From the NCBI GenBank assembly GCA_003663045.1, contig QMZG01000009.1:1-16212 (forward strand): DNA of 16,212 bases. The letters run 5' to 3'. Position 1 is the first letter of the stretch, and the number at the start of each line of letters is the position of its first letter. The stretch is from Candidatus Altiarchaeales archaeon. GTDB taxonomy: Archaea > Altiarchaeota > Altiarchaeia > IMC4 > QMZM01. Below the pieces are notes generated by a model. The model searched no databases, was not told the DNA's origin, and saw only the letters and a program-made list of their open reading frames with translations. Shown piece by piece: positions 1 to 14,038 of this stretch. A program made the translations under genes and the position numbers.

Positions 1-33
1 CAACATATATAGGTATGTTAGATTTTTTACGCT

Positions 34-53
34 AGAAATCCTAAAGGATTTCT
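34..53. terminator. Perfect 8-bp inverted repeat AGAAATCC-TAAA-GGATTTCT preceded by a T6 run (23-28). It may be an intrinsic-like terminator for a gene upstream of the window, or an operator.
   Basis: Seen directly: 34-41 AGAAATCC, loop 42-45 TAAA, 46-53 GGATTTCT is the exact reverse complement. The oligo-T at 23-28 is typical of archaeal termination signals. The position upstream of the virB3/4 promoter would suit either role. Confidence 0.25.
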
Positions 54-237
54 ACATAGCTATAATTATATTATGATAAAGAAGATAGATCTGAAAAAGT
101 TTGACAAGTTATCCACAGAGAAACAATACGAGAATTAGTTGGATAGAGAGTAGGTTATTTGAAAATATCTGTGATTATTACCTTTATTCTTATTTTAACT
201 GAATCTGATCTTCTGAAATATATCCCACAAAAAACAA

Positions 238-258
238 ATATTTATAGGAGTTTATATA
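238..258 (+). promoter_or_regulatory. TATA-like boxes (AAATATTTATA / TTTATATA), about 24-31 nt upstream of ATG 282. Candidate archaeal promoter giving a leaderless or short-leader virB3/4 mRNA.
   Basis: TTTATATA at 251-258 is centred about 27 nt upstream of ATG 282, which is the archaeal TATA-to-TSS spacing. GGGAGA at 274-279 could alternatively act as an SD. Confidence 0.3.
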
Positions 259-281
259 ATGTTGTAATTAACAAGGGAGAA

Positions 282-1160
282 ATGCCATATAAAATTCCCA
301 CTGACATAAGATATGAGGAAAGGTTATTTGGACCATTAACCGTGAAGCAATCCATATACGCCTTAGTAGCAGCTATTTTAATTCTCTATCTTATATTTTT
401 CTCCGGTTTAGAGTTTTATGTATACATCATACCTGTCTTTTTAGTAGCTATTCTGGCTATAGGCTTTATAATGTTCAATCTGGATATGTATCTCTTAAAT
501 TATCTCTACTATATTAAGGGGATGAAAGAGTCATCATGGATTTCACCCGCTGCAAGGAAGTTGATGGAGATTAGATCAATTAGAGCGGATGCGGTATTTT
601 TGAAGGACGGTCGCGTTCTTGGTGTGATAAAGGTAAAGCCCATTAACTTTGGGGTCCTGAGTAGAGAAGACCAAGATACGGTGATATATGGATTCTTAGA
701 ATTTATAAATTCATTGAGTTTTCCTATACAGATTGTGATGAAGTCTGTTAACCTTGATTTAAGTGATTATCTAGGAGCATTGAAGAGAAGGATTGTGCAA
801 AGAGATGATAAGATGGCTCTTGCCTATTATGAACATTTTTCAGAGTATATGTATGATTATATAAAGGCCAATAAAATTAATGACAGATTATTCTACATAA
901 TAGTTCCCGCCAAAAGGTTTGCAGATGAAAAGAAGACGATCATGAATCTGGAGGATAGATGTAAGGCGGTTATTGAAACCCTGGGTCTTTCGGGAATTAT
1001 TGCAGAAAGACTGGGTAATAGGCAACTTCTTAGCCTTTATTCATCCTATTTCACAGAGTCATTTAAATTAGATGAGGAATTTGTTTCGCCTATTACCATG
1101 TATAAAAGGATGTGGCATGAAGCACCTAAAAAGGTTTATTATGTAGAAGAGGAACTATAA
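282..1160 (+). CDS. VirB3-like membrane hairpin fused to the VirB4 N-terminal domain, i.e. the N-terminal part of a split T4SS VirB3-VirB4 ATPase. The ORF track starts it at TTG 159. ATG 282 is the more likely start.
   Basis: With ATG 282 the N-terminus reads MPYKIPTDIRYEERLFGPLTVKQSIYALVAAILILYLIFFSG...IPVFLVAILAIGFIMF. A short cytoplasmic segment, the 'LFxGLT' motif and two TM helices form the classic VirB3/TrbD/PrgI layout. The following stretch AVFLKDGRVLGVIKVKPINFGVLSREDQDTVIYGFLEFINSLSFPIQIVMKS matches the conserved start of the VirB4/TrbE N-terminal domain ('dGsl..v.r..g.d...s.ee.e.....l..ll..l'). ATG 282 has GGGAG 5 nt upstream and a TATA box at -27. The longer TTG start adds a hydrophobic 41 aa of uncertain reality. 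Confidence 0.7.
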   Translation: MPYKIPTDIRYEERLFGPLTVKQSIYALVAAILILYLIFFSGLEFYVYIIPVFLVAILAIGFIMFNLDMYLLNYLYYIKGMKESSWISPAARKLMEIRSIRADAVFLKDGRVLGVIKVKPINFGVLSREDQDTVIYGFLEFINSLSFPIQIVMKSVNLDLSDYLGALKRRIVQRDDKMALAYYEHFSEYMYDYIKANKINDRLFYIIVPAKRFADEKKTIMNLEDRCKAVIETLGLSGIIAERLGNRQLLSLYSSYFTESFKLDEEFVSPITMYKRMWHEAPKKVYYVEEEL

Positions 1161-1165
1161 TCAAA

Positions 1166-3481
1166 ATGGAATTTCCAGATATAAAGCTTCCCTCTGGTTT
1201 GTCTCTACCAATGTTTAAGAAAAAGAAAAAGACAACGGTAGAAGAGGGAGGGGTGTATGAATATGAGGACAAACTCATAGGGTATTTGACATCCCCTTCA
1301 ACCATAATAAAGCATATAGATGACATTCAGATAGAGAAATTTCACAGGATAATAGCTGCCATAAATTATCCTCGCTTGGTAGAACCGGGATGGTTAACTA
1401 GGTTAATTGAGATGAATCTGGATTTTGATTTAAGTATTCATATCTCACCCTATTCCATTGAATCTACTGTGAAATTATTGGAGACTGAGATAAAGAAGCA
1501 AAAAACTGACCTTTATGGACTAAAGGCTGAGGGTAAAATTGTACCTCAGGAATTGATACAGAAGCATGAGGATACCAAGGCTTTATTGGAAGCAATTCAA
1601 AATGGTACAGAGAAGATGTTTACAATGAGCCTTTATATTGATGCTAAGGCTTATGATAAAAAGACCCTGGAAAAGGTGACGACTATGATAAAAGCAAAGA
1701 TGAGTTCTATTATGATCACCCCAAAGGTTCCTTCCTTTCAGATGTATAAAGCACTTAAGTCTGTATTGCCCATACAGGATGACCAACTCCATATAACCAG
1801 AGAGATTACATCATCCGCCGTATCTGCATGCTTTCCCTTTGCTATCACCTCTTTAGAACACCACGCTACAGGAATTCTGATAGGATTTAATCAGATAAAT
1901 AATATACCCATTATAATTGATCCATTTGAATTAAGCAATCCCAATATACTAGTTCTGGGGACATCCGGCGGGGGTAAGAGTTATACTATAAAATTACTAT
2001 TGATGAGGGAATTCATGGAGGGCGTGGATATAAATATTATTGACCCGCAGGCCGAGTATACCGACTTGGTTAAGACATTTAAAGGAAAGACCATTAGAAT
2101 TGCCCCAGATTCTGACTCCATAATAAACCCATTTGATCTTATGGGTCAACCCCTGGATGAAAAGAAGCTTTCGCTTTTAGCATTCTTTAGGGTTCTTCTT
2201 GGGGAACTAAATGAGGGACAAAGGGCTATCCTCGATGATGCCATTGACAGTACCTATGAGGATGCTGGAATTACCAAGGATCCCAAGACCTGGTCAAAGA
2301 GGCCCCCAATATTAGAAGACCTTTATGATCATATTCTACCCCTGACCAGATCCGAAAAGGAGATCATCTATAGGCCTGCTATGTCTATTGTGAATAGACT
2401 AAAGGCCTATATATTTGGACCACTAAAATTTTTGAACCAGCAGACTAAGATAGAGCTTGACAACAGGATGATTTCCTTTGATATTAGGGATATACCAGAC
2501 ATTGGTAAAGGAACTATTATGTTCCTGATCTTGGAATATGTCTATACCCAGATGAAAAGAAGCAGGAAGAGAAAGGTCCTGGTTGTTGATGAGGCGTGGA
2601 GTGTTTTTTCTGCGGGCGATGAAGGTGAGTACATACTAAGACTAGTAAAGACCTGTAGAAAATTCAACCTATCATTGGTTATGATAACTCAAGACGTGGA
2701 GGACGTTCTCACCTCAAGGGCTGGCAGGGCAGTAATGAGTAACACCGCCACTAAGATATTACTAAAGCAGGATACTACGGTAGTTGATGCTATCAGTGAG
2801 AAATTTAAACTTAATGAGGCTGAAACTAGGTTCTTGAGGATTGCCAGCGTGGGTACAGCATTATTGATTGCAGAAAATCTTCGGGTGCCAATTCATGTTC
2901 AGGCATCCCCAGAGGAGCACAGGATTATAACCACCAGACCAGATGAACTCTTAGAAATGATAAGGAGAGAGGGAAGACCAGAGGTGGATAGAGAAATGAA
3001 ACCTGAGTTGGATATTACTGACGTGGTTCAGAATAAGATTAAATTAACCAATGAACAGATAGAGGCTTTAATGGATATAGGATTTACTGAAGTTAGGGTT
3101 AATTCACTGGATGGTAAGAGTGAACTCTACATCATAAAGAATGAGACAGAGGATACTGATGAACATTTTGTCTTACAGCATCTTATCTTCAAGGAGGTTA
3201 AAAAATATACGGACAAGGTACTGATACACTACACAAAGTTGCCAGACATAACATTTGAAACTCCCGATGGGAGATTAATTGCTATAGAGGTAATCGCCGA
3301 CTTGGGTTTAAAAGCAAACATAGAATCTATGGAAGAAAAACTACCTATATTAAAGAAATATAATGATTATTTCTATGTAGTCAAAGATCCTGAGCTGAGG
3401 AAATATGAAAGCTTTGGTGAGATCCTAGTTAGAACACAGGTTCCAACCAAGATCAGATCATACTTTGAAGCTGGCAGTTAA
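1166..3481 (+). CDS. virB4: VirB4/TrbE/CagE/TraC-family type IV secretion/conjugation ATPase (C-terminal ATPase part of a split VirB4). It carries an extra roughly 170-aa C-terminal extension made of a predicted wHTH plus a restriction-endonuclease-like (PD-(D/E)xK-type) fold.
   Basis: Walker A ILVLGTSGGGKSYT (nt 1958-1981 = GTSGGGKS). Walker B KVLVVDEAWSVF (DEAW at nt 2588-2599), the VirB4/TraC hallmark. Sensor motif LVMITQDVEDV ('ITQ'). The start is 5 nt after the stop of the VirB3/VirB4-N ORF. C-terminal aa about 620-771: LTNEQIEALMDIGFTEV (HTH-like), then EHFVLQHLIFKEVKKYTDKVLIHYTKLPDITFETPDGRLIAIEVIAD. The pattern E...D...E-V resembles the core of a PD-(D/E)xK / Hjc-like nuclease fold. 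That last point is an inference. Confidence 0.88.
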   Translation: MEFPDIKLPSGLSLPMFKKKKKTTVEEGGVYEYEDKLIGYLTSPSTIIKHIDDIQIEKFHRIIAAINYPRLVEPGWLTRLIEMNLDFDLSIHISPYSIESTVKLLETEIKKQKTDLYGLKAEGKIVPQELIQKHEDTKALLEAIQNGTEKMFTMSLYIDAKAYDKKTLEKVTTMIKAKMSSIMITPKVPSFQMYKALKSVLPIQDDQLHITREITSSAVSACFPFAITSLEHHATGILIGFNQINNIPIIIDPFELSNPNILVLGTSGGGKSYTIKLLLMREFMEGVDINIIDPQAEYTDLVKTFKGKTIRIAPDSDSIINPFDLMGQPLDEKKLSLLAFFRVLLGELNEGQRAILDDAIDSTYEDAGITKDPKTWSKRPPILEDLYDHILPLTRSEKEIIYRPAMSIVNRLKAYIFGPLKFLNQQTKIELDNRMISFDIRDIPDIGKGTIMFLILEYVYTQMKRSRKRKVLVVDEAWSVFSAGDEGEYILRLVKTCRKFNLSLVMITQDVEDVLTSRAGRAVMSNTATKILLKQDTTVVDAISEKFKLNEAETRFLRIASVGTALLIAENLRVPIHVQASPEEHRIITTRPDELLEMIRREGRPEVDREMKPELDITDVVQNKIKLTNEQIEALMDIGFTEVRVNSLDGKSELYIIKNETEDTDEHFVLQHLIFKEVKKYTDKVLIHYTKLPDITFETPDGRLIAIEVIADLGLKANIESMEEKLPILKKYNDYFYVVKDPELRKYESFGEILVRTQVPTKIRSYFEAGS

Positions 3482-3521: not shown

Positions 3522-4682
3522 ATGGCGTTGATACCATTGGGTGAGAAAGAGGCTGAAGGGGAGGTCTATGTCCCAGAGGAGAAAAAAACAGGGATAGATA
3601 TCATAGAAAAATTCATAGAAAAATGGAGGGATGGGATATTTACCATCCTCGTTATCGCTTTTATAACAGCAATTTTTATTCCAGATATATTCCTGGGGGA
3701 TATTGGGATTAATCTTAAGTTGATAATTTTTGTTATAATAATTTTTTTAATCATTAGGATATCAGTTGTAAGATTACTTGAGTATGAAAGAGCAGTTGTA
3801 TTCCGACTGGGTAAATTTCACAGGGTAGCTGGTCCGGGTTGGGAATTGATTTTTCCAATAGTGGAGAAGTTTGTGAGGACGGATCTGAGATTAAAGGTTT
3901 ATACCATAGAACCGCAGGAGATAGTCACAAAGGATAAGGTAAGATTCTTGGTCTCTCCGGAGATATTCATGTACGTTTCTAATCCAAAGGATGCGGTGAT
4001 AAATGTGGACAATTACGAGAAGGCAGTTCTTTCTTATGTAAATTCAGCCCTGACCCATGTGGGCGGTGATTCAACCTCCGATTACATAGTAGCGCATATG
4101 GATGATATAAGCGAGATGCTGGAGCACAGTGTTGAAAAAATATCCACATTACCGGGAAGGGAGTGGGGGGTAATTGTACCAAAAATTAAGTTGGGGTTCA
4201 TCAGATTTCCAGATGAGGTTCAGTCCGCTATGCATAAAAGGGTCGCAGCCGGGCAACTAAAGTTGGCGGCACATGAAAAGGCAGATGCTACTAAGATTGA
4301 AATAGACGCCATAAGAGAGGCTGGCTCAAAACTTACTGATCCAGCAATTACCTATCTGTACCTAGAAGCATTGGATAAGATAGCTAAAGGAAAAGCTACG
4401 AAGATGATATTGCCTCTAGAAATATCCAAGATTGCAGAGAGCATAACCAAGAGAACTGGTGCTTTACCAGAAACACCTGAGGTCAGTTTACCCAAAGATT
4501 TAATTCGGAAATATAAGGAGTCTGTGGATAGGTATGATAAAAAACTGAAGGAGATAGAGGATAAACTGGCTAAAAGGGAGATAAAAGAAAGGAAAGAAAA
4601 GTCAGAGAAAAAAGAAACTGGGGAAGAACTTAATGAATACAAGGAGAGGATTAGAGAGATAAAAAAGAGGATCGGTATATAA
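3522..4682 (+). CDS. SPFH / Band-7 (stomatin/prohibitin-like) membrane protein with an N-terminal TM anchor and a C-terminal K/E-rich coiled coil.
   Basis: N-terminal TM segments FTILVIAFITAIFIPDIF / LKLIIFVIIIFLIIRI are followed by the canonical stomatin signature VVRLLEYERAVVFRLGKFHRVAGPGWELIFPIVEKFVRTDLRLKVYTIEPQEIVTKDKV. The pattern 'V.EYERaVvfRlGk....PG...i.P..d.v..vdlr......p.q.v.TKD.v' is classic SPFH. The tail EIEDKLAKREIKERKEKSEKKETGEELNEYKERIREIKKRI is a coiled coil. Confidence 0.85.
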   Translation: MALIPLGEKEAEGEVYVPEEKKTGIDIIEKFIEKWRDGIFTILVIAFITAIFIPDIFLGDIGINLKLIIFVIIIFLIIRISVVRLLEYERAVVFRLGKFHRVAGPGWELIFPIVEKFVRTDLRLKVYTIEPQEIVTKDKVRFLVSPEIFMYVSNPKDAVINVDNYEKAVLSYVNSALTHVGGDSTSDYIVAHMDDISEMLEHSVEKISTLPGREWGVIVPKIKLGFIRFPDEVQSAMHKRVAAGQLKLAAHEKADATKIEIDAIREAGSKLTDPAITYLYLEALDKIAKGKATKMILPLEISKIAESITKRTGALPETPEVSLPKDLIRKYKESVDRYDKKLKEIEDKLAKREIKERKEKSEKKETGEELNEYKERIREIKKRIGI

Positions 4683-5226: not shown

Positions 5227-6990
5227 ATGGACGACTTTGAAAGATTTTGGATGGAAAGGGAAAGAGAAGAACTGGAGATAGAACCGGAGAAACTTAGAAA
5301 GGTTCTATCGAAGATACTTAAAGAGTTTAATCTGGAGTTAAAATCAATTGAAGAAACCGAAGAGAAAGACCTGGTAGCTACATGCTTAGATAAATTGGGG
5401 AGGGAGGTAACATCCTTAATAAGAATTCGTGCCGATACCGAAGGGATCGAAAGGGATGATGTAGAGGACTTTTATGAGGATATGGTAGAGAAAAGGGCTG
5501 TAGCTGCTATCTTTATCACTACCTCTTATTTTTTTAAGGATGCCAAGGATTTTGTAGAAGGGCTTCCCATAAGGCTGGTTGATAGAACACAGTTATCAGA
5601 AATTATAGCTGAGATCGAGGCCATAAAGGTTGAGAAGGCATTTGTTTCTGGGATGAATGACTCACAGGTGGTGAAATATTTCCAAAAAAAGACAAAGGGG
5701 AGGGTATTAGGTAGATTTGGAATGCCTGAGAATATCGAAGAGATAGATCGCAGGTATCTACCCATGGGGTTTTTCAGTCTCAAGAAAATCGAAGAAAACG
5801 TTGAAAGGAGAAAATTTGCATACATAGATCTCAGCAGTGGCGATCTCTTCTATATAGATGAAGGACGTATAAAGAAGGATGATATCATAAAGAATATTCT
5901 TAATCTTCCTCCAGAATCCAGGGAACACCTCATGGATTTGATTGAGCATGGAGAACTGCCTCATGAACATATAGATGGGAAGTATTTGCTCATACTGAAA
6001 AAAAGAGGGTTATTAGGAGAGTATGAAGAGGGTAGAGGGGGTGGAATCCTCAGTACTATGGTAAATGGAATCATGAGTTTAGTGATGATAATAATCGATA
6101 CAGCAGGGGAATTTATTGGCATTCCAAGATCAGAACATGTTCCAAAGGGGGGTACTGCTCAACCAAAGAGAGTTAAAGCGAGAGTCAATATCCCCATCTT
6201 TGATCAAGCCTATAATCTGGAGAATTTTATGGAGGTTTCAAATGCCAGTGAGGAATTTGATCCGGATCCCATGAAGTATAAACCAGAGGAGGTAGAGGAT
6301 ATTCTGAGGAAAATCACCGGGTATGAGGTAAAATTCGAGAATATGGTTTATTTTCCCTATTACCTGTGCAAATATTCTGGTCCAAGGGGGGAGAGGTACA
6401 GAAGGTTATATTCAGTGAAATTTAAAGAATTTTTTCCGAGGCCGGGAACATATAATGTATTGTATCATATTATAGACAAGTTTCCAGAATTGCCTTATCT
6501 CATACTGGCTGCTCTTTATATCCATTTTAATATCAGTGAAACGGAAAAATTAATGCATGTATTCTCTTCTTCCTTTCTTTTCCTGATTATATGCGTTTTC
6601 ACAGGGACGTTGTTAAAGGCTATCTTCAAGACGGAAAGAGTAACACCCTACTACGGTGTATCAGTTTTTAGATACGGATTTCCATCCATGCACAGTTTAG
6701 CCTCCATCGGTGCTATAGGGTTTGTATATTTTATAGAACCCATGGGGCCTTTACTTTCACTAGTACTGGTACCAATAGGTCTGCTCTATGTCTATTCCAG
6801 AATCAAGATAGGCGCTCACAGCGTGACCGATGTTATTGGGGGGGCAATCATTGGCCTTATCATGGGGATAATCTCTGGTATGCATCTACTGAAGATTCAT
6901 CTTCCATATCCTTTGGAGTTGATATCCACCACACTTTTTGTTATCATGCTATTTATCTTTATTATAATTAGAATTAAGTATATACACTAA
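5227..6990 (+). CDS. Fusion protein with an N-terminal Mrr-type restriction-endonuclease-fold domain (Mrr_cat-like), a central linker/wHTH-like region, and a C-terminal polytopic PAP2-superfamily (type 2 phosphatidic-acid phosphatase / haloperoxidase fold) membrane domain.
   Basis: N-terminus: LSKILKEFNLELKSIEETEEKDLVATCLDKLGREVTSLIRIRADTEGIERDDVEDFYEDMVEKRAVAAIFITTSYFFKDAKDFVEGLPIRLVDRTQLSEII. This follows the Mrr_cat pattern (D..D core, 'QcKr'-like LIRIR, 'gi.vTTs.Ft.eA..fa....i.LidgeeL'). Note R replaces the usual catalytic K. The C-terminal TM bundle carries the three PAP2 motifs: KAIFKTERVTP (KX6R-like, aa 464-474), FPSMHS (PSGH-type, nt about 6682-6693), and YSRIKIGAHSVTD (SRX5HX3D, nt 6796-6831). 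Confidence 0.8.
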   Translation: MDDFERFWMEREREELEIEPEKLRKVLSKILKEFNLELKSIEETEEKDLVATCLDKLGREVTSLIRIRADTEGIERDDVEDFYEDMVEKRAVAAIFITTSYFFKDAKDFVEGLPIRLVDRTQLSEIIAEIEAIKVEKAFVSGMNDSQVVKYFQKKTKGRVLGRFGMPENIEEIDRRYLPMGFFSLKKIEENVERRKFAYIDLSSGDLFYIDEGRIKKDDIIKNILNLPPESREHLMDLIEHGELPHEHIDGKYLLILKKRGLLGEYEEGRGGGILSTMVNGIMSLVMIIIDTAGEFIGIPRSEHVPKGGTAQPKRVKARVNIPIFDQAYNLENFMEVSNASEEFDPDPMKYKPEEVEDILRKITGYEVKFENMVYFPYYLCKYSGPRGERYRRLYSVKFKEFFPRPGTYNVLYHIIDKFPELPYLILAALYIHFNISETEKLMHVFSSSFLFLIICVFTGTLLKAIFKTERVTPYYGVSVFRYGFPSMHSLASIGAIGFVYFIEPMGPLLSLVLVPIGLLYVYSRIKIGAHSVTDVIGGAIIGLIMGIISGMHLLKIHLPYPLELISTTLFVIMLFIFIIIRIKYIH

Positions 6991-8987
6991 TCATCATCTC
7001 TTCCAAATTCCTCTTCTTTCCTTTCTCTGGTATCTATACGGACATCAATAATGCTTCTCAAACCATCTTCTGTGTTAAACACAATAATTCCACTGTATAA
7101 TCTTCTTTCTATATCCTCTTTTGTAGTGATCACCATTTTTATTATCTTCTCTTCACCCCTCTCCAATCTGAATCTATTTTCCTTATAGTTTATAAATATT
7201 CCAGCTGTAAGTAGTTCTTCATCATATACTATAACCCTTGAGAATGAATGATCCTCATCGTTTCTTAAGGCGATTTCTACCAATCTGGTCTCACCGGGCT
7301 GAACATTCACAGTAAGGGATGGTGGTACCGGTTTTTGTGGCAGGGTTGCCGTGACTATCCCCTTTCTCCTCTTCCTGGGAACCTCGGATGGAGCACGAGA
7401 ACGTATCTCATCCATCATGTATGGCTTTGCCTTCTCTTCTGAGACAACCCTGAATCCGTATTCATCCCCGATATATTTTTCTATTGAGGTCTTTCTCTCC
7501 CTCGCTGCTTTGACAAGTAATTCATAAAGATTTTCATTTCTCTGAATCTTTTCTATGGGTATCTCGCCCTTGATATTCGCCATACCTCTTAATGCGTCCT
7601 TTAGGGTTGCCCTGATTGGCCTAATTGGAGCATGAGAGGGTATCTTCTCTTCTCTTGGCTTAACCCTCTTAGTGACTCCGGGTTTGATGTAAGGAACTCC
7701 CACTCTTACACCTTTTTTAGAAGTAATTTTGAATCCGTATTGTATATTAACAAATTCCTCTACTGACATCCTTTTCTCCCCTGCAACACGAATTAGTGAG
7801 TTATGAAGCCTCTCATTTTTTTGGATTTCCTCCAGGGATATTTCACCCCTGATGTTGGCCATCTTTTTTAATGTAGAACCAATCTCCTCTCTGGACAACT
7901 CTCCTTTCTCAACGACCCTCTCATAGCCCCTCACACCAACCGCTGCTCTTGGTTCTTCTTCGGGCTTTTCTTCCTCTTTTTTCTCAAGTTCTATCTCAGG
8001 TTTCTCGAAGAATACTATCATCGGCGCCAGAGACTCGATAAAGATTACTGAGATGACAGCAAATGCACCAAACCAATTCATTAACCCGAATATGATCAAT
8101 GGCGATATTATCAGTAGAAGGGCCCCAGAGATATTTACCAGATCAGAGATTTCCGGTATGAGGGTAGTAAGAATCTGACTACCTACAGCTATTATTACCA
8201 ATGCAAGGGCATATCCTACCGGAAGAAAGATCCAGAAGAGCAGTTGCTTTATGATTATCTTTCCTATGTTCTTTGTAAGATAGAACAAACTGAGGAATAT
8301 TGCAAATGGAAAAAATATGATTAAAAAGATTAAAAGGATGTATCTAGCAACTAAGATGGCAAATATACCTAAAGTTAAGATAAATGTGAATATCAAAAAG
8401 GGTATACTTATTGCTATATCAATCCAGATAAAATCTACCGTCCTATAATTTAGATAATCTATGGCATTCTTATATGTAATCCCTATATCTAAGGGCCCCT
8501 GGGATAGAATACCCCTAGTTAGAACCTGCGATACATCGAGTAGTAACTGCATTATATGTAGGGAAAGTGAAATGATAACCATACCCACCAACAGCCTTAA
8601 CATCATGGACTTTGCCCTTGATCTGCCTCTTGGTGATCCTGAAAAGAACATCAGATAGATCCCTGTCAGTACTATGGCTGCGATATAGAATGGCTCCAGG
8701 ACTTTGACGAAGTAACCCCCAATATCTATTATCATCGGGTCTCTTAACGGAATTTCTTCCAAGAGATATGCATGAAGGTTATCATAGATTTCATCCTTCA
8801 TAACATCTATCTTGCCCCAGATCATTCCCAAGAATGTCAACCTTCTTGATAGTTCTGAAAAGAATTTTAGTATGGCATCGGCAGTAGACTCAAGAAATTC
8901 ACCAAATTCTGGCGGAATTGCGTATGCTACAGATGATAAGAGTAATGATACCGCGAATATAAATATTATAAATGTTCTACATTTCAT
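6987..8987 (-). CDS. Polytopic membrane protein, paralog 5 of 5 (VirB6/TrbL/TcpH/CedA-like by architecture). It has a roughly 340-aa hydrophilic C-terminal extension containing an internally duplicated roughly 65-aa module. It is the last gene of the minus-strand operon.
   Basis: Signal peptide MKCRTFIIFIFAVSLLLSSVAYA. Family motifs VLEPFYIAAIVLTGIYLMFFSGSPRGRSRAKSMML and FFPFAIFLSLFYLTKNIGKIIIKQLLFWI, with at least 6 TM helices. After aa about 325 comes an acidic linker EKPEIELEKKEEEKPEEEPR. Two repeats follow: (aa 371-435) STLKKMANIRGEISLEEIQKNERLHNSLIRVAGEKRMSVEEFVNIQYGFKI and (aa 460-523) ATLKDALRGMANIKGEIPIEKIQRNENLYELLVKAARERKTSIEKYIGDEYGFRV. A predicted beta-rich domain and a DDD tail end the protein. 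The stop overlaps the convergent Mrr-PAP2 stop. Confidence 0.8.
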   Translation of the reverse strand: MKCRTFIIFIFAVSLLLSSVAYAIPPEFGEFLESTADAILKFFSELSRRLTFLGMIWGKIDVMKDEIYDNLHAYLLEEIPLRDPMIIDIGGYFVKVLEPFYIAAIVLTGIYLMFFSGSPRGRSRAKSMMLRLLVGMVIISLSLHIMQLLLDVSQVLTRGILSQGPLDIGITYKNAIDYLNYRTVDFIWIDIAISIPFLIFTFILTLGIFAILVARYILLIFLIIFFPFAIFLSLFYLTKNIGKIIIKQLLFWIFLPVGYALALVIIAVGSQILTTLIPEISDLVNISGALLLIISPLIIFGLMNWFGAFAVISVIFIESLAPMIVFFEKPEIELEKKEEEKPEEEPRAAVGVRGYERVVEKGELSREEIGSTLKKMANIRGEISLEEIQKNERLHNSLIRVAGEKRMSVEEFVNIQYGFKITSKKGVRVGVPYIKPGVTKRVKPREEKIPSHAPIRPIRATLKDALRGMANIKGEIPIEKIQRNENLYELLVKAARERKTSIEKYIGDEYGFRVVSEEKAKPYMMDEIRSRAPSEVPRKRRKGIVTATLPQKPVPPSLTVNVQPGETRLVEIALRNDEDHSFSRVIVYDEELLTAGIFINYKENRFRLERGEEKIIKMVITTKEDIERRLYSGIIVFNTEDGLRSIIDVRIDTRERKEEEFGRDDD

Positions 8988-10110
8988 TTTCTATTCTTTT
9001 CCCGCTCTCAAAGTATGCCGTTGTCATTGCTGCAGGCTTCAGGAAGATGGCCGATATCAGAGCAAGAGAACTTATCCAGCTCATTATTCCCATGGCTATT
9101 AATGGGGCAAGGATTAACATTAAAAATCCAGAGAATACCACAAAGGTGTTTAAATCCAGCAATACCCCTGTGGCAGGTTCCGGGATAGAGAATATGCTAT
9201 TATAGGCAATCCAGGTAACCAGGAGTATTATAGCATCGATAACTGGGACAAATATCCAGATAATTGTTTGATTAAGAAGGATTCTCCCAACCCTTTTGGT
9301 AGCAAAGAAGGAATAAAGCAGGATCGTAAATGGGAAGAATATTGTTAGGAGAATCACCATAAAATATCTGATCGCCAGCACCATGAGAACACCGGCCGGT
9401 AGGAGAATGAGTAGGGCTAAGAATGGAAGTCCAATAAAGATCTCAAAAAATGTCACTACCAAGAAGTATTTTATAAAGAATTCCTTAGCCAACATAAACA
9501 TCTCAACGTTTATGGGAGATTCCGGGCTGGGAATTGATAAAAGAACTGATGTAAGATAGTGGGAGGTCTCTAAGAGCATCTCTATTATGGGTAACGTTAA
9601 TGTGATAATCCCAAGCCCGAGAATCAGTTTTATGAGGGTGGATTTTGCCCGTGCCCTGCCCAGTGGCGATCCGGAAACGAAAAGGAGATATACTGAGGTT
9701 ATCAGTATGGCAAGCGCATAAAATGGTTGAAGTATACTGATAAAGAGATTTAGGATCCCCAAAACTGCAGGGGCCCTTAACAGTGCTGGTGTATCCTTTA
9801 TTGTATTTCCCTGAAAAAGATCCCTCTGGTATATGAAGGGGATGAGGTTTTCAGAATATATCTTCATTAGCGCATCAATTCTATCTGCGATATAAAAATA
9901 GAAATCTATCCGCCTCGTTATCTCCATGCCCATCTTTGGGTACTCTCTCGAGACCTCATCCATCAGATCCTTCAACTTTGATGCTAACGACGGTTCAAGT
10001 GCGGGGGAAGCATGCTGTGCCGTGACATGGATGATACTAACCGTAACCAGAAGCATGACAATTGCTAATCTTCCCATTATTTTTTCTTTACCTTTTCCAT
10101 TCATTTTCAA
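8977..10110 (-). CDS. Polytopic membrane protein, paralog 4 of 5 (VirB6/TrbL-like candidate). The track start is TTG 10110. ATG at 10104 (MNGKGKEK...) or 10077 (MGRLAIV...) is the more likely start.
   Basis: Signal peptide or TM GRLAIVMLLVTVSIIHVTAQHA. Family motifs ILQPFYALAILITSVYLLFVSGSPLGRARAKSTLIKL and FFPFTILLYSFFATKRVGRILLNQTIIWI, with multiple TM helices. It abuts the upstream paralog with no gap. GGGGG lies 8-12 nt upstream of ATG 10104. Confidence 0.8.
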   Translation of the reverse strand: MKMNGKGKEKIMGRLAIVMLLVTVSIIHVTAQHASPALEPSLASKLKDLMDEVSREYPKMGMEITRRIDFYFYIADRIDALMKIYSENLIPFIYQRDLFQGNTIKDTPALLRAPAVLGILNLFISILQPFYALAILITSVYLLFVSGSPLGRARAKSTLIKLILGLGIITLTLPIIEMLLETSHYLTSVLLSIPSPESPINVEMFMLAKEFFIKYFLVVTFFEIFIGLPFLALLILLPAGVLMVLAIRYFMVILLTIFFPFTILLYSFFATKRVGRILLNQTIIWIFVPVIDAIILLVTWIAYNSIFSIPEPATGVLLDLNTFVVFSGFLMLILAPLIAMGIMSWISSLALISAIFLKPAAMTTAYFESGKRIENEM

Positions 10111-11064
10111 TTAAGGCAAAAACCCCCTGAATAATCTTACAAATATGAAGGGGGTAAGCATTAACATCAACAAACCGGCCAATTCCATGATGAATTTTAA
10201 TCCAGTAGGAACGATAAAGCTCGTTATTAAATCTGTGAGATTCATTCCTATCGCTATTATAACGAGCACGAATGCCATCGCAGCCTGAGCTAATGTCCAG
10301 AGAAGTGTTTGTTCCAGTAGCAATCTTCCCATTCCCCGGGAGGGTAAAAAGGAATAGAGAAGGATTGTAAATGGCAATATCATGGAGAGGATAGCTACCA
10401 TGTAGAACCTCAATTTTAGGATAAGGAATATCCCCTCCAAAAGAGCATAAGGGATAAAGAGGAGGGGAATTCCGGCCCTCTCCACGCCCAGTGACCAGCC
10501 ACTGGCACTGTGCGACATTATATGCCTGCCCATGTTGAGTATATATTCCGTTGCATGTATAAAAGGATCATTCTTGTTTACCGGAGCCAATGATAGAATA
10601 TTTAGGGTAATTGCCTCCGAGATACCAAAGAATATCATCAGAATATAGGGCGAAACGGATATGATTGCAATGCCGATAATCAACAGTAATAGGGAGGATT
10701 TTGCACTGGCTCTCTTTTCTGGTGAGCCAGAAAAGAATATCAGGTAGATTCCAATGAGGATTATTACTGTAACATATATTGCCTGTAAAATGGAGATGAA
10801 GTAATCCATAATCTTCTTGGTATTTGATTCCAGTATTGAGGGATTCTCCAGTATCAGATCATCTATATTCCTAAGTGTTTCTATCTTTTCCATTATCAAC
10901 CTTTCGTAATTTTCAGATACCTTTTCTCTAAGGAATGCCTCCGCTGCCTCTTCGGTCAGTGGATAGATGATCCCCGATACCGAATTTGACAAAAACAGCA
11001 ATATTACAATAACTATCAATAATGAAATTCCTCTGATTTTTGGGTTGATTGAATCTTTTTTCAT
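10111..11064 (-). CDS. Polytopic membrane protein, paralog 3 of 5 (VirB6/TrbL-like candidate).
   Basis: Signal or TM LLIVIVILLFLSNSVSG. Motifs ILQAIYVTVIILIGIYLIFFSGSPEKRASAKSSLLLL and ILPFTILLYSFLPSRGMGRLLLEQTLLWT. C-terminal ...FVRLFRGFLP. The start ATG (11062-11064) overlaps the TGA of the upstream paralog (ATGA-type coupling). GGAGA lies 8 nt upstream. Confidence 0.82.
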   Translation of the reverse strand: MKKDSINPKIRGISLLIVIVILLFLSNSVSGIIYPLTEEAAEAFLREKVSENYERLIMEKIETLRNIDDLILENPSILESNTKKIMDYFISILQAIYVTVIILIGIYLIFFSGSPEKRASAKSSLLLLIIGIAIISVSPYILMIFFGISEAITLNILSLAPVNKNDPFIHATEYILNMGRHIMSHSASGWSLGVERAGIPLLFIPYALLEGIFLILKLRFYMVAILSMILPFTILLYSFLPSRGMGRLLLEQTLLWTLAQAAMAFVLVIIAIGMNLTDLITSFIVPTGLKFIMELAGLLMLMLTPFIFVRLFRGFLP

Positions 11065-11990
11065 GGTAAAAATCTCCTAACCATTGTTATTAGCATTATG
11101 GGTGATATGATTACCACCAGAAATGTTGATATACCTATTATAGTTCTTAGATCCCCGCTAAAGCCTAAAATAGTGATTCCCATATTTGCAGTCACTATAA
11201 GCAAGGCAATTATTACCTGGAGGAATGTCCACAATATGGTCTGTTCCACTATAAACCTGCCAATGTCCCTCGTTATGTTAAATGTATACAGGAAGATGCC
11301 TATGGGGAATATCAATGTGAAGATCAAAAGAAGGAGATATCTCAGAGTAAGAACAGAAAAGATACCTATTATCATGAAGAATATGAATAAAAGGAAGAGG
11401 TGACCCCCTTCGAATGTGGTTAATGTGGATGCAGTAAAGATTCTCACAAGATCATTTATTGTGTCCAGGAATATCCTCCCTATCCCCACTGGACTCTTAT
11501 CCAGTATATCCTTAGACAATTCATAGGAAACATTTGAAATCAGTTGCAGTATGGGGAAGGTGAGGGAAACAATTACCATACTGGCAATCAACTTGGGAAA
11601 GAGTAATTTCGCTTTTCTTCTACCCTTTGGCGATCCGGAAAGAAACATTAGGTAGATTCCAGTAATTAATATTGCCATAACATATAATGGTTCTAAGACG
11701 GTGATGAAGTATTCTATTATATGATTTATCAGATGATCATCAAGTGGGGGATTCATCAGGATTAAATCACGCAGACTATCAAAGATTTCCAATAATCCAT
11801 GACCTACCGGTTTTCCAATAAACGTCCCATGGAGCAGGTAATAGATAAGCAGGATGAATATCCCCCTGAATTTTAATTCGATTGCTTCATGCTTCACGGC
11901 CATTTCCCCAAACCATTCTGAGGTTATTGAGGGGATTAATATGATGCAGATGCATACCCCCATTATCAATTTTTTATTTATTTTTCTCAT
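11061..11990 (-). CDS. Polytopic membrane protein, paralog 2 of 5 (VirB6/TrbL-like candidate).
   Basis: Signal or TM LIMGVCICIILIPSITSE. Motifs VLEPLYVMAILITGIYLMFLSGSPKGRRKAKLLFPKL and FPIGIFLYTFNITRDIGRFIVEQTILWT. C-terminal ...MVRRFLP. 4-nt overlaps at both ends (11061-11064, 11987-11990). Confidence 0.82.
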   Translation of the reverse strand: MRKINKKLIMGVCICIILIPSITSEWFGEMAVKHEAIELKFRGIFILLIYYLLHGTFIGKPVGHGLLEIFDSLRDLILMNPPLDDHLINHIIEYFITVLEPLYVMAILITGIYLMFLSGSPKGRRKAKLLFPKLIASMVIVSLTFPILQLISNVSYELSKDILDKSPVGIGRIFLDTINDLVRIFTASTLTTFEGGHLFLLFIFFMIIGIFSVLTLRYLLLLIFTLIFPIGIFLYTFNITRDIGRFIVEQTILWTFLQVIIALLIVTANMGITILGFSGDLRTIIGISTFLVVIISPIMLITMVRRFLP

Positions 11991-12919
11991 GGTAAGAAAT
12001 CCCTCAAAAAGCTTACGGTAGCTATAGGGACCACTATCAGGGCTATAATTCCTCCCAATTCCAACAAAATCAATACCTCACGCGTCAACAAGGAGGAAAA
12101 CACCACGATTATGGTAGCTATTGAGGTTAATGCTATTGCCTCCGTTACCTGTACAGAAATCCAGAGCAGTGTTTGTTCCATCATCCTTCTGCCTATCCCT
12201 CTGGTAGGCATGAAGAGATAGAGGAATATCGTCAATGGGAATACTATGGTAAATAGAGCAACGACGATATACCTTGAAAATATAACAAACAGGAGTGCAG
12301 AAATAATTATCAGAGAAAGAAACAGAAATGGTACCGATGCCTCTGAAGAATACCATGTGATATTATGAAATTTTGACATAAGATAATCTATTGGATTTAT
12401 GTCTTTATCTAAGGGTAGTAGAATGCCTACAGGATCACCCGGTCCCTGAGATATTATACCATCCGATAGGGTTTCAGAAAAACTGAAAATCACACTCATT
12501 ATATACGGTGAGATAGCAATTAATACCATTGCTATAATAATTCCCGGTAATAAAGATTTTATCTTTGCCCTGATTCCGGGCGAACCAGAAAAAAATATCA
12601 TATATATCCCACTGAAGATTATGGCAAAGACAAACAATGGCTCCATGATGGTCACAATATATCTGGTAATACCCAAGACATCTGGATTCATTGGGTTCGG
12701 ATTCAGTAGCAATATCTCCACAAAATGATCCCTGCATATATCCATGGCATATACTACAAGATCCTCACCAATCTTGTTAAGATTCATTCTCAGAAGAAAA
12801 TCTAATAGTACCTTAACTGCTGCCGCTTCCCCAATGAAAGCTGACGATGATGATGCGAGGAATAAAACTACTATAACCGGGAATGTTAATTTAAACAAGA
12901 TCTTCCTTATTGACTTCAT
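11987..12919 (-). CDS. Polytopic membrane protein, paralog 1 of 5 (VirB6/TrbL-like candidate).
   Basis: Signal peptide LTFPVIVVLFLASSSSAFIGEAAA. Motifs IMEPLFVFAIIFSGIYMIFFSGSPGIRAKIKSLLPGI (nt about 12553-12594) and VFPLTIFLYLFMPTRGIGRRMMEQTLLWI. C-terminal ...SFLRDFLP. Start ATG is at 12917-12919, 12 nt after the upstream gene. Confidence 0.82.
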   Translation of the reverse strand: MKSIRKILFKLTFPVIVVLFLASSSSAFIGEAAAVKVLLDFLLRMNLNKIGEDLVVYAMDICRDHFVEILLLNPNPMNPDVLGITRYIVTIMEPLFVFAIIFSGIYMIFFSGSPGIRAKIKSLLPGIIIAMVLIAISPYIMSVIFSFSETLSDGIISQGPGDPVGILLPLDKDINPIDYLMSKFHNITWYSSEASVPFLFLSLIIISALLFVIFSRYIVVALFTIVFPLTIFLYLFMPTRGIGRRMMEQTLLWISVQVTEAIALTSIATIIVVFSSLLTREVLILLELGGIIALIVVPIATVSFLRDFLP

Positions 12920-12931
12920 TTTTCTAAAGGG

Positions 12932-14038
12932 TTATTTTCTGATGAATTTGAAATATCCCGCTACCAAGATTATCACAGAGATTAAGAGTATCAGGTAATT
13001 GAGCCATTCCACTTTCATGCAATCTGGATCTTCTCCACTCTTACAGTCTGGATCACATTTTCCATCCTCTACCTTATCACAGTAACCATCCTCTCCTCCA
13101 GAAGCACAGTCTTGAGGACAATTGAGATAATTTTCAATACCCATCTCACAGATGTTGTCGTTATTGCAGATACAATCTATATCCCCCTCCCTATGACAGT
13201 CGGGGTCACATATCCCATCTCTTATTCCATCACAATAATTGTCCCTGGAGCCAGAACAGTCCTCTGGACAATTCCAGTAGTTTTCACCATGGTCACAGAC
13301 ACCATTTTTATTGCAGGTTTCTATTACGATAACCTCTATCGTATCTTTTACGGAGATATTCTCAAAATCGATAACCTCAAGGGTAATCTTATGAATTCCA
13401 GCAGAGAGATTATCAATCCTCGTTATATCTTTATCTAATTCCTTCCCATCCAATTTCCAGATAAGGGTATATGGCTTTTTACCACCATAGACAGAGGGAA
13501 TCAGGTTGATGAAATCCCCCCTTAGGTATGTAGTATTCTTTGGCGATAGGATAGATACTGTTAAAGGAATTTTCTTTATTACTACCAGAGAGATATCCTC
13601 CCTTACCTCCAAACCGGTACTATCCCGGACCTTGAGGGTAATCTCATGCGTGTTCACAGACAGGTTCTTTATAGTGAATTCTCTATCTCTTCCTATAACC
13701 CCGTCTATATTCGATACCCATTCAAATCTGTAGGGTGGTGTGCCACCAAATACAAACGCCTCAAAGTTTATAGGACCTTCTTCATAGATGTGTGGATAAC
13801 CAAATGGAGATATAATAGATGCCGTGAGTTTTTGGGTTATACCCTCGTCCCCTACTAATTCATCCAATGGATCTGGAGTAATTTTAATATTTTCATGACT
13901 TGTATTATCTGGATCTAATTCGGGATATGCGGGATGAGAGTGGTAGGAATGGCATCTCTCACAGACTCCCCCAGCGTAATAAATTAATGCAAGCAGCATT
14001 ACTACTATTTCTATTCCGGTTGTCATAATCCTCCTCAT
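12932..14038 (-). CDS. Secreted/surface protein. It has an N-terminal signal-anchor, two PKD/Ig-like domains ('GGxPPYxFxW' type), a duplicated Cys/Asp-rich module pair (candidate Ca-binding, TSP3/EGF-like), and a C-terminal TM anchor.
   Basis: N-terminus TGIEIVVMLLALIYYAGG. PKD-like signatures FVFGGTPPYRFEWVSNIDG and YGGKKPYTLIWKLDGKEL. Sequons include NLS, NTT and NIS. The Cys-rich array at aa 242-340 (nt 13019-13315) is built as [CNKNGVCDHGENYWNCPEDCSG + DNYCDGIRDGICDPDCHREGDIDC] then [CNNDNICEMGIENYLNCPQDCASG + DGYCDKVEDGKCDPDCKSGEDPDC]. C-terminal TM WLNYLILLISVIILVAGYF followed by KFIRK. Confidence 0.8.
   Translation of the reverse strand: MRRIMTTGIEIVVMLLALIYYAGGVCERCHSYHSHPAYPELDPDNTSHENIKITPDPLDELVGDEGITQKLTASIISPFGYPHIYEEGPINFEAFVFGGTPPYRFEWVSNIDGVIGRDREFTIKNLSVNTHEITLKVRDSTGLEVREDISLVVIKKIPLTVSILSPKNTTYLRGDFINLIPSVYGGKKPYTLIWKLDGKELDKDITRIDNLSAGIHKITLEVIDFENISVKDTIEVIVIETCNKNGVCDHGENYWNCPEDCSGSRDNYCDGIRDGICDPDCHREGDIDCICNNDNICEMGIENYLNCPQDCASGGEDGYCDKVEDGKCDPDCKSGEDPDCMKVEWLNYLILLISVIILVAGYFKFIRK

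Follow-up and report, generated by a model that had tools for sequence, protein, structure and literature searches.

The VirB4 gene of the archaeal locus studied here is split in two, and this split is a genuine, long-conserved two-gene arrangement, neither damage nor a sequencing error. It is a variant of an arrangement that is already known. The window analysed is a stretch of 16,212 nt from a Candidatus Altiarchaeales archaeon (contig QMZG01000009.1), and its features are collected in Table 1. We consider it very probable that ORF1 and ORF2 are both functional genes, are transcribed together and supply between them the parts of a VirB3-VirB4 unit; its division at a flexible inter-domain linker would go back to an ancient gene fission, or to a fusion that was never completed.

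The two ORFs are separate and lie in different frames on the forward strand, ORF1 at 282-1160 and ORF2 at 1166-3481, with a spacer of 5 nt (1161-1165). An earlier note, made from the sequence alone, had given these frames, coordinates and gap, and they are reconfirmed here. A TTG-extended form of ORF1 begins at 159, but the true start is the ATG at 282; the ORF1 homologues have the N-terminus MxYxIP and a length of ca 292 aa. The frame of ORF2 is open upstream to nt 1130, the closing stop being a TAA at 1127-1129 (the TAG at 1144-1146 belongs to the third frame). The range in which an indel could fuse the ORFs is therefore ca 31 nt; the earlier note had placed the limit at 1148 and the range of a 1-nt indel at 13 nt (1148-1160). 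Eight of the 15 loci have GGAG/GAGG at -20 to -4 of the ORF2 start (background 13.5%, binomial p = 2.9e-4). Before the ORF1 starts there is no enrichment of Shine-Dalgarno-like motifs, GGAG/GAGG occurring in only 2/15 loci.

Table 1. Positions of the two genes, their domains and motifs, and neighbouring genes in the window.
Feature	Position	Strand	Basis or remark
ORF1, 292 aa: membrane-anchor / N-module subunit, VirB3/PrgI hairpin plus TraC-like (TrsD-like) first VirB4 N-terminal subdomain	282..1160	+	
Hydrophobic VirB3/PrgI-type hairpin with two predicted TM segments (aa 19-73)	336..500	+	Kyte-Doolittle 19-residue window >1.6
Cytoplasmic alpha/beta domain, aa ~85-260, TraC-like / TrsD-like	534..1061	+	hhalign vs pSK41 TrsD
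Variable C-terminal tail of ORF1, putative remnant of the inter-domain linker	1116..1157	+	aligns to low-pLDDT linker of fused relatives
Shine-Dalgarno-like GAGGA within ORF1 3' end, upstream of ORF2 start	1149..1153	+	
Gene junction: ORF1 stop TAA 1158-1160, 5-nt spacer, ORF2 ATG 1166-1168	1158..1168	+	same in six independent assemblies
ORF2, 771 aa: ATPase subunit of VirB4 type, soluble; colinear with pSK41 TrsE but with an extra C-terminal domain	1166..3481	+	
ORF2 N-terminal tail, variable; contains the polybasic run KKKKK (nt 1217-1231) and a hydrophobic (I/L)P(F) motif	1166..1270	+	
Second subdomain of the VirB4 N-terminal region, kept in ORF2	1283..1870	+	PF03135; TIGR00929; P0122 residues 340-520
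RecA-like ATPase core	1931..2827	+	P-loop_TraG; Walker A, Walker B, MITQD
Walker A GTSGGGKS	1958-1981	+	
Walker B LVVDEAW	2579-2599	+	
MITQD motif	2681-2695	+	
C-terminal restriction-endonuclease-like (PD-(D/E)xK) fold domain, small helical/strand element before it	3026..3478	+	
Conserved C-terminal-domain motifs	DEH 3155-3169, PD 3239-3256, IEV 3278-3301	+	
666-aa protein, weakly VirB6/TrbL-like	6987..8987	-	precomputed weak PF19590 TrbL_3, identical protein in same-strain contigs
Two proteins, 377 and 317 aa, with T4SS_pilin-like segment	8977..11064	-	Pfam PF18895

The same genes of 292 and 771 aa are present in six independent assemblies of this strain, made from six samples with three pipelines (ENA, Logan and JGI, two assemblies each), and the 140 nt at 1101-1240 are identical in all of them, every A-run included, apart from one substitution (SNP) at 1196. 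The comparison with orthologous loci that the earlier note had proposed shows that the two-gene organisation is conserved: the stop and restart are kept in 15/15 loci from different Altiarchaeota species. All 224 homologous clusters, with identities down to 55-63%, are split, none being fused among either the ORF1-type (n = 120, 220-360 aa) or the ORF2-type ones (n = 104, 687-806 aa). Across related loci the frame of ORF2 relative to ORF1 is 0, +1 or +2, most spacings are -4 to +9 nt, and the operon-type junctions include TAAATG (L001), TAGATG (L002, L012), TAAaATG and an ATGA overlap; in L001, L002 and L012 both genes are in one frame, with a stop and then a start between them. Since close relatives have the genes in the same frame with stop and start, or with the ATGA overlap, the frame offset in the window is incidental. 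The earlier note's title, which spoke of a single frame change, is thus misleading for a pair that relatives keep in all three relative frames. Compared with L001, dN/dS is 0.060 for ORF1 and 0.045 for ORF2, with dS >1 and saturated synonymous sites, and both genes are under purifying selection.

Three options had been offered in the earlier note: a genuine two-subunit VirB4 in which the N-terminal subunit tethers the ATPase to the membrane, an assembly error and a recent inactivating frameshift. The first is supported, and the other two are refuted. A miscalled homopolymer might be suspected in this A-rich region, with its A5 runs at 1127-1132 and 1220-1230, and one long-read-looking MAG (L004/L017) has frame breaks elsewhere in these genes. 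However, an error of this kind has practically no probability, because the six independent assemblies have the same junction, and other species conserve the gene boundary as well. Were the locus instead a decaying VirB3-VirB4 fusion pseudogene, a lone 1-nt indel within 1130-1157 would suffice to join both frames; the resulting fusion of ca 1,065 aa (ca 1,070 aa in the earlier note) would also fit the real fused relatives of 1,071-1,110 aa. We regard this as next to impossible, because the two-gene state is found in all related loci and clusters and dN/dS is low (ca 0.05) in both halves. In several relatives, moreover, an in-frame stop precedes a new start, and identity to the closest fused proteins is no higher than 41-44%.

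We now turn to the proteins themselves. The N-terminus of ORF1 is of the PrgI/VirB3 family, with a two-TM hairpin and a match of PF12666 (PrgI) to aa 4-74 that lies above the Pfam gathering score (33.1 bits vs a cutoff of 27). ORF1 also covers positions 22-278 of the 894 in the NCBIfam profile NF045975 (VirB4_plasma), with 50 bits, and the two matches bear out the VirB3-like TM hairpin and VirB4 N-terminal start noted earlier. The hydrophobic segments are confined to ORF1, ORF2 having none. In the model of a fused relative (P0122), the hairpin helices are at residues 23-41 and 47-67, and residues 91-258, equivalent to the alpha/beta domain of ORF1, fold at pLDDT 83-95. Homologues of ORF1 carry the precomputed PF26593 'TraC-like' annotation, and beyond the conserved SPITMY(K/R)xMW motif their tails vary in sequence and length.

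ORF2 has the P-loop core of the VirB4/TraC/CagE superfamily (Walker A, Walker B and a TraG/VirB4-type domain), and the VirB4 ATPase domain that the earlier note saw here is confirmed, with Walker A, Walker B and MITQD located. P-loop_TraG (PF19044) matches aa 256-554 (E 4e-25, 88.8 bits vs a cutoff of 25.8), and DUF87 and AAA_10 also exceed their Pfam cutoffs. The best NCBIfam match is CD1110 (profile 202-737, E 3.3e-91), and positions 295-893 of NF045975 are covered as well. All curated NCBIfam cutoffs are missed, those of CD1110 (306.7 bits vs 325), VirB4_plasma (244.6 vs 590), TIGR00929 (136 vs 643) and TraC-F (147 vs 567), as are those of the Ced ATPase families CedB (NF041017, 57.3 vs 700) and CedD (NF053655, 62.1 vs 600). 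Judged by these profiles, ORF2 is a VirB4 relative without membership in any curated equivalog.

In the N-terminal part of ORF2, CagE_TrbE_VirB (PF03135) matches aa 46-178 weakly (E 0.0029), and the TIGR00929 match starts at profile position 229. The N-termini of the homologues have 'FPxIKLP...KKKK' in common, followed by a conserved YEDKLIEYLTSPS block. The Lys-codon run, positioned one nucleotide too early in the earlier note (1216-1230), was considered as a slippage site and rejected, the polybasic motif being conserved at the protein level in homologues. The C-terminal domain has the restriction-endonuclease-like alpha/beta fold of the PD-(D/E)xK superfamily. The D of PD(I/V)xF and the E of AIEV are near-invariant or invariant; two residues past this E there is I, E or T instead of K, and a conserved K lies ~17 residues further down.

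VirB3-VirB4 fusions are known from some MPF_T systems, from the Mycoplasma ICE Mbov_0397 family (NF045975) and from the uncultured archaeal proteins P0122 and P0124. The fused relatives have ca 1,070-1,110 aa, the nearest being 41-44% identical and others less. ORF1 and ORF2 together are colinear with the whole fusion as described by NF045975, and the archaeal fused relatives have every ORF1 and ORF2 domain, the C-terminal nuclease-like one included. The difference is that there are two polypeptides here, with the break at a linker for which the fused model shows disorder: the split site corresponds to a length-variable, unconserved stretch in the fused relatives, which in P0122 models at pLDDT 36-61 between well-folded domains. 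The N-terminal domain and the ATPase are thus not in one polypeptide, and instead of a single protein with more than 590 bits over the whole NF045975 profile we find two pieces of 50 and 244.6 bits (sum ca 295). The model of P0122, which is 44% identical to ORF2, matches full-length TrwK/VirB4 (8rtd_O; E 1.8e-27, 919 columns, TMt 0.60) and the VirB4 CTD (4ag5; TMt 0.85). As modelled, P0122, standing in for the window proteins, has the VirB4 fold (NTD plus RecA-like CTD), with an inter-domain packing that is uncertain since the pTM is just 0.56. The NJ tree is unsupported, and the change may have been either a fission or a fusion.

The locus resembles that of the staphylococcal conjugative plasmids pSK41/pGO1 (MPF_FATA, pGO1 subclass), where the gene order is pilin, VirB3-like TrsC, TrsD and the VirB4 ATPase TrsE. 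BLASTP aligns ORF2 aa 57-620 with pSK41 TrsE aa 54-655 (E 5e-29); the two ATPase genes begin at equivalent points (aa 57 and aa 54, respectively), and ORF2, as in a TrsD/TrsE-type split, directly follows the N-module gene. The ORF1 family profile aligns with pSK41 TrsD by hhalign (probability 70.5%, E 3.9e-5, 153 columns, ORF1 aa 98-250 to TrsD aa 41-208), and the TrsD family NF041427 gives 25.3 bits (E 1.1e-5) vs a curated cutoff of 200. From these modest matches, the ORF1 domain is probably homologous to TrsD, though outside the curated NF041427 family. The ORF1 hairpin matches pSK41 TrsC weakly (hhalign probability 50%). Since the gene boundary coincides with that of TrsD and TrsE, ORF1 can be equated with VirB3/PrgI joined to a TrsD-like N-subdomain of VirB4, and ORF2 with a VirB4 ATPase of the TrsE kind. 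TrsD is described as a remote homologue of the N-terminal portion of VirB4 whose gene usually adjoins virB4 (PMC12102498). TrsD-VirB4 pairs are widespread in Patescibacteria. A distant archaeal relative (L027, 30% identity) has the same layout as the locus studied here, with a pilin and a PrgI/TraC-like protein (289 aa), then an ATPase (580 aa).

In contrast to pSK41, a single polypeptide combines the VirB3-like hairpin with the TrsD-like domain here, which gives two genes rather than three; the host is archaeal (Altiarchaeota), the locus is seemingly chromosomal, and ORF2 has the extra nuclease-fold domain of ~150 aa, which TrsE lacks. For TrwK/VirB4 and TrwM/VirB3 of plasmid R388 (cryo-EM 7O3J-7O43, 8RTD), the overall VirB4 fold matches in the fused relative's model, at a sequence identity of ~13%. 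There VirB3 is separate and VirB4 undivided, whereas here the N-terminal region of VirB4 is itself cut, and its first piece carries VirB3. The N-terminal domain of R388 VirB4 contacts VirB3 and the membrane (PMC12857230).

Two further explanations have to be weighed. Programmed -1 ribosomal frameshifting at AAA AAG (1128-1133) could add some fused VirB3-VirB4 beside the separate proteins: CCT AAA AAG stands exactly where the ORF2 frame opens and resembles the slippery A AAA AAG, and a -1 slip would enter the ORF2 frame, with the expected junction peptide ...APKK-GLLCRRGTIIKMEF.... However, the heptamer begins with T instead of A, and the AAA AAG codons encode a conserved protein motif, (E)APK(K/Q). 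Neither the motif nor the frame relationship is conserved, L003 having AAA CAG at the same offset, L001, L002 and L012 in-frame stops, and L008 and L011 no or minimal overlap. We therefore consider such frameshifting very unlikely. Somewhat less improbable, though still unlikely, is that ORF1 (VirB3 plus a TrsD-type factor) has a role of its own as an accessory or anchor protein and does not complete the VirB4 fold, ORF2 being a self-sufficient, short TrsE-like VirB4. Indeed, pSK41 TrsE (672 aa), which is taken to be the VirB4 there, starts where ORF2 does. In one distant relative (L028), moreover, no ATPase gene adjoins the ORF1-type gene, so that the N-module may have a further role separate from VirB4. 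On the other hand, the ORF1 domain is the contiguous VirB4 N-terminus in the fused relatives and in the Mycoplasma-type VirB4 profile, the fused relative's model aligns with full-length TrwK over ~900 columns, and the N-terminal domains of R388 VirB4 mediate dimerisation and VirB3/VirB8 contacts (PMC12857230).

A VirB2-like pilin of 136-153 aa (PF18895, E 1e-10 to 1e-11, and TrbC) is encoded directly upstream of the pair in L002, L006 and L020-L024. Within the window, PF18895 is above cutoff in the 317-aa protein (E 1.7e-6) and below it in the 377-aa protein (E 0.0056); the 666-aa protein has no match in the Pfam scan of the window. Neither the window ORFs scanned nor the same-strain loci (14 kb) contain T4CP (VirD4) or relaxase domains. 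With a VirB2-like pilin and a VirB6-like membrane protein nearby, the pair looks to be part of a minimal T4SS-like module, and the locus looks chromosomal. The archaeal Ced/Ted DNA-import systems (CedB/TedB) are likewise minimal and chromosomal, combining a VirB2-like pilin, a VirB6-like protein and a VirB4-like ATPase, and they too have no T4CP or relaxase nearby. In the description of Ced/Ted in PMC9905601, VirB3 is not mentioned, and neither a TraC-like N-module nor a split is described.

In the mechanism that we propose for the conserved two-gene VirB4, ORF1 is the membrane subunit, composed of the VirB3/PrgI two-helix hairpin and the first alpha/beta subdomain of the VirB4 N-region, the part found as separate TrsD in the T4SSs of the pGO1/pSK41 type and of Patescibacteria. 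ORF2 is the soluble subunit; it consists of the second N-subdomain, the ATPase core with Walker A/B and the C-terminal nuclease-fold domain. Its translation starts from its own ATG 5 nt past the ORF1 stop, probably coupled to that of ORF1 through the GAGGA inside the end of ORF1. The two proteins would associate non-covalently, ORF1 docking an ORF2 hexamer to the membrane, and would work with the VirB2-like pilin encoded just upstream of the window and with the VirB6-like protein at 6987-8987. Like Ced/Ted and the systems of Patescibacteria, the whole set would be a minimal chromosomal T4SS-like machine that assembles pili, transfers DNA or does both.

Two adjoining plus-strand open reading frames, 5 nt apart and in different frames, open the window, just as the earlier note had described. 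They are complementary pieces of one known architecture: of the 894 positions of NCBIfam NF045975, a VirB3-VirB4 fusion family of Mycoplasma ICEs, ORF1 covers 22-278 and ORF2 covers 295-893. The VirB3-like hairpin proposed for ORF1 is confirmed by a Pfam PrgI match over aa 4-74 (33.1 bits, cutoff 27), and the only strongly hydrophobic stretch of the protein is aa 19-73; its TraC-like label rests on precomputed PF26593 matches. ORF2 indeed carries the VirB4 ATPase, with a VirB4-type P-loop domain (PF19044, E 4e-25; also DUF87 and AAA_10 in Pfam) and both Walker motifs, and no hydrophobic segment was found in it. A sequence search of the PDB gave no match at E <= 1 with a 44-sequence ORF1-family profile, and a chance match only with the C-terminal segment of ORF2. 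The observation is thus real, with minor coordinate errors. Of the two starts named for ORF1, the ATG at 282 stands and position 159 does not, since homologues start with MxYxIP and have a length of about 292 aa, and the ORF2 frame, thought to be open to 1148, is open to 1130, behind a TAA stop at 1127-1129.

Coordinates of the features discussed (nt for DNA, residues for the P0122 model)
Feature	Sequence	Position	Strand	Remark
ORF1	window	282-1160	+	292 aa from ATG 282; TTG-extended reading from 159
ORF2	window	1166-3481	+	771 aa
Walker A of ORF2	window	1958-1981	+	
Walker B of ORF2	window	2579-2599	+	
GAGGA motif	window	1149-1153	+	5' of ORF2 start
SPFH/Band-7 (HflK-like) protein	window	3522-4682	+	PF01145, E 5.7e-25; directly 3' of ORF2
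Mrr-type + PAP2 protein	window	5227-6990	+	587 aa; PF04471 (E 8e-12) and PF01569; unusual fusion
Seven-gene operon	window	6987-15948	-	637-aa YVTN beta-propeller, three of 309-368 aa, two pilin-like, one of 666 aa
VirB2/TrbC-like pilin	L020	4348-4764		
VirB2/TrbC-like pilin	L002	5240-5701		
VirB2/TrbC-like pilin	L006	5451-5861		
Junction, 5-nt gap	window, L003			
Junction TAAATG	L001			
Junction TAGATG	L002, L012			
Junction TAAaATG	L006			
Junction, ATGA overlap	L008, L011			
Helical hairpin	P0122 model	23-81		
Confident alpha/beta domain	P0122 model	91-258		
Low-confidence segment	P0122 model	261-339		pLDDT 36-61
Next folded domain	P0122 model	from 340		

Three readings had been offered for the split, namely a genuine two-subunit VirB4, a recent inactivating frameshift and an assembly error, and the comparison of orthologous loci shows the first to be the right one. 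A protein search with ORF1 gave, among the matches listed, 120 clusters at 55-100% identity, most of them carrying the label Candidatus Altiarchaeota or Altiarchaeales; their lengths all fall within 220-360 aa (median 296), and none of the 120 is a fused protein. The 104 clusters found with ORF2 (56-99% identity) are all 687-806 aa long, and none of them carries the N-module, that is, the VirB3 hairpin with the first, TrsD-like VirB4 N-subdomain. The two-gene layout is kept in all of the 15 loci compared, which come from different GTDB species: the homologue of ORF2 lies directly 3' of that of ORF1. The junctions are of the operon type, and the reading frame of the second gene is offset from that of the first by 0, +1 or +2; one shared frameshift cannot therefore explain them, while a fixed gene boundary with a freely drifting spacer can. 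Against L001, the closest relative and the only pair for which dN/dS is given because dS is saturated in all others, dS exceeds 1 and the ratio is 0.060 in ORF1 and 0.045 in ORF2. The conserved two-gene state, the varied frames and these ratios together refute a recent lesion or pseudogene, and we conclude that two separate genes are the wild-type condition across an entire archaeal lineage. A GGAG or GAGG motif stands 4-20 nt 5' of the ORF2 start in 8 of the 15 loci (background 13.5%, p = 2.9e-4) and ahead of ORF1 in 2 of 15, a distribution that fits ORF2 being an internal cistron with a putative initiation site of its own.

The assembly-error reading fails on independent data. P0272, a protein 99% identical to ORF2, occurs on contigs of six independent assemblies, from two samples each of ENA, Logan and JGI, and in all of them 5 nt lie between the 292-aa gene and the 771-aa gene. 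Aligned over 1101-1240, the window and the six contigs are identical at all positions but for a substitution at 1196, and the A-runs are of equal length. In one MAG (MFD04492.bin.2.19), frame breaks absent from other relatives occur in the ORF2 N-tail and in ORF1 (L004 2951-3111 and L017 6001-6617); unlike the clean junction of the window, these look like indel errors of that assembly. We have also considered programmed frameshifting, in which a -1 slip at CCT AAA AAG (1125-1133) would read into the frame of ORF2. However, neither the motif nor the frame relation is kept among relatives, and the AAA AAG codons encode a conserved APK(K/Q) motif, so this mechanism is very improbable. That ORF1 is an independent TrsD-like factor which does not complete a VirB4 we consider unlikely.

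The two-gene state reaches beyond Altiarchaeota, since in a distant archaeal relative (L027, 30% identity) a pilin gene is followed by a PrgI/TraC-like protein of 289 aa and then by an overlapping ATPase gene of 580 aa. The N-module gene can also be unlinked from that of the ATPase: a distant ORF1-type gene (L028 5619-6491; PrgI and TraC-like, 290 aa) precedes genes of the opposite strand and has no adjacent VirB4 ATPase. Two contigs with clear Altiarchaeota-type pairs (68-69% identity) sit in bins labelled 'uncultured Spirochaetia bacterium' (L005, CAZSCZ010000229.1) and 'Methanobacteriota archaeon' (L008, JAKFXM010000017.1), labels that probably reflect mis-binning or coarse taxonomy. The Altiarchaeota VirB4 clusters P0378 (641 aa) and P0383 (652 aa), 71-74% identical to ORF2, contain PF14890 (Intein_splicing), and the ATPase gene of some relatives thus holds an intein.

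We now turn to the fused relatives. An exhaustive HMMER search with ORF1 of 1.84 billion representatives returned 1,405 relatives. Counted over the best-scoring representatives and a few added family members, with the whole N-module covered, 55 are stand-alone N-module proteins of about 275-330 aa and 18 extend more than 400 residues past the module, most of the latter being full-length fused proteins of 883-1,110 aa. Fused and split states are interleaved on a rough neighbour-joining tree of the N-module, which has no support values and is read for interleaving, not for direction. The nearest fused proteins (P0122, whose source contig looks archaeal, P0387, P0389 and P0124) share 41-44% identity with the window proteins. 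In the fused forms, the end of ORF1 and the start of ORF2 align to an unconserved stretch of about 0 to 60 residues, flanked by the conserved blocks ...SPxTxY(R/K)xM and ...SPxxI...YHRxxxxxxYPxxVxxGWL. As a stand-in for ORF1 and ORF2, an AlphaFold2 model of P0122 from a mixed alignment (mean pLDDT 80) matches 4ag5, a structure of the VirB4 C-terminal domain (TMt 0.85), and, over 919 alignment columns, full-length TrwK/VirB4 of R388 (8rtd_O; E 1.8e-27). In Altiarchaeota the tails that flank the split are variable and K/E-rich, a pattern to be expected if they are what is left of a linker. Most ORF2 homologues have near the N-terminus a hydrophobic 'FPxIKLP / LPF' motif and then a KKKKK run (window 1175-1231, aa 4-22), which may be a membrane- or partner-binding peptide; this conserved polybasic run accounts for the lysine codons flagged earlier, which lie at 1217-1231 rather than 1216-1230.

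The arrangement has a counterpart in the staphylococcal plasmid pSK41, with the gene order CagC-type pilin, TrsC (VirB3-like, 135 aa), TrsD (227 aa) and TrsE (672 aa, DUF87). TrsE aa 54-655 correspond to ORF2 aa 57-620 (E 5e-29), from near the first residue, and TrsD aa 41-208 to ORF1 aa 98-250 in the ORF1-family profile (probability 70.5%, E 3.9e-5); ORF1 also matches NCBIfam TrsD (E 1.1e-5), and TrsC aligns weakly to the profile. A 2025 survey describes TrsD as a remote homologue of the N-terminal part of VirB4 that usually adjoins virB4; no other T4SS component is as abundant in Patescibacteria, where the survey found no VirB3-VirB4 fusions (PMC12102498). A separately encoded VirB4 N-module is therefore a known arrangement, and the split in the window is a variant of the TrsD/TrsE type, not a lesion. 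It differs in the fusion of VirB3 to the N-module, in its host, an archaeal phylum, and in an extra C-terminal domain on ORF2. In R388, the N-terminal domains of VirB4 are embedded in the membrane, link protomers to each other and touch both VirB3 and VirB8 (PMC12857230); by analogy, ORF1 would be the membrane adaptor of ORF2. The paper on the archaeal Ced/Ted DNA-import systems mentions neither VirB3 nor a split, and TrsD is absent by name from the main text of the 2014 paper on T4SS classes. We found no literature on Altiarchaeota or Altiarchaeales with VirB4 or type IV secretion, and none on a lineage-wide module.

A VirB2-like pilin gene (136-153 aa; PF18895 and TrbC) lies just 5' of the ORF1 homologue on same-strain contigs, in L002 and in L006. 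As the same-strain gap is about 350 nt, the pilin gene would lie just past the 5' end of the window, which takes in all 16,212 nt of its contig and whose position 1 falls just after that gene. In the minus-strand operon, the 666-aa protein (6987-8987) has a weak TrbL_3 (VirB6-like) match, two neighbour proteins have T4SS_pilin-like segments, and the three proteins of 309-368 aa gave no family match; these genes are possibly further parts of the same apparatus. The module looks chromosomal, because the flanks in L006 are housekeeping genes (IF5A-like, DRG-type GTPase, glycosyltransferases) and contigs that carry homologues measure 1.39 and 1.56 Mb. The scanned ORFs of the window and same-strain loci showed no T4CP, relaxase or integrase. 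Just 3' of the VirB4 pair in the window, on same-strain contigs and in L002 (9354-11168) is the Mrr-PAP2 gene, with the Mrr end N-terminal and the PAP2 membrane phosphatase end C-terminal. The SPFH/Band-7 gene is absent from that position in L002 and L006.

It is worth stressing that adjoining ORFs which jointly span a single known protein need comparative data before they are annotated as a frameshifted pseudogene. The frameshift question itself is minor; of modest note are the fusion of VirB3 with TrsD, the presence of a nuclease-fold domain in the ATPase and, in Altiarchaeota, a so far undiscussed T4SS-like module that is apparently chromosomal and lineage-wide. The first VirB4 N-subdomain stands alone in pSK41 and Patescibacteria, is fused to VirB3 in the window, and is joined to both VirB3 and the ATPase in the fused archaeal relatives. 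This range of states identifies a flexible linker at which the machine can be cut, and also supports the idea of the TrsD-like subdomain as the membrane/VirB3 adaptor of the ATPase. A wider reading, offered tentatively and rather doubtful as a whole, is that Altiarchaeota possess a vertically inherited chromosomal minimal T4SS-like machine. Besides a VirB2-like pilin and a VirB6-like protein, it would have an anchor that fuses VirB3 with TrsD and a VirB4 ATPase containing a PD-(D/E)xK nuclease-fold domain. Assembly of this ATPase would obligatorily take two polypeptides, and its nuclease domain would process DNA as it is taken up or exported. If true, Altiarchaeota would exchange DNA by an apparatus that differs both from Ced/Ted and from plasmid conjugation.
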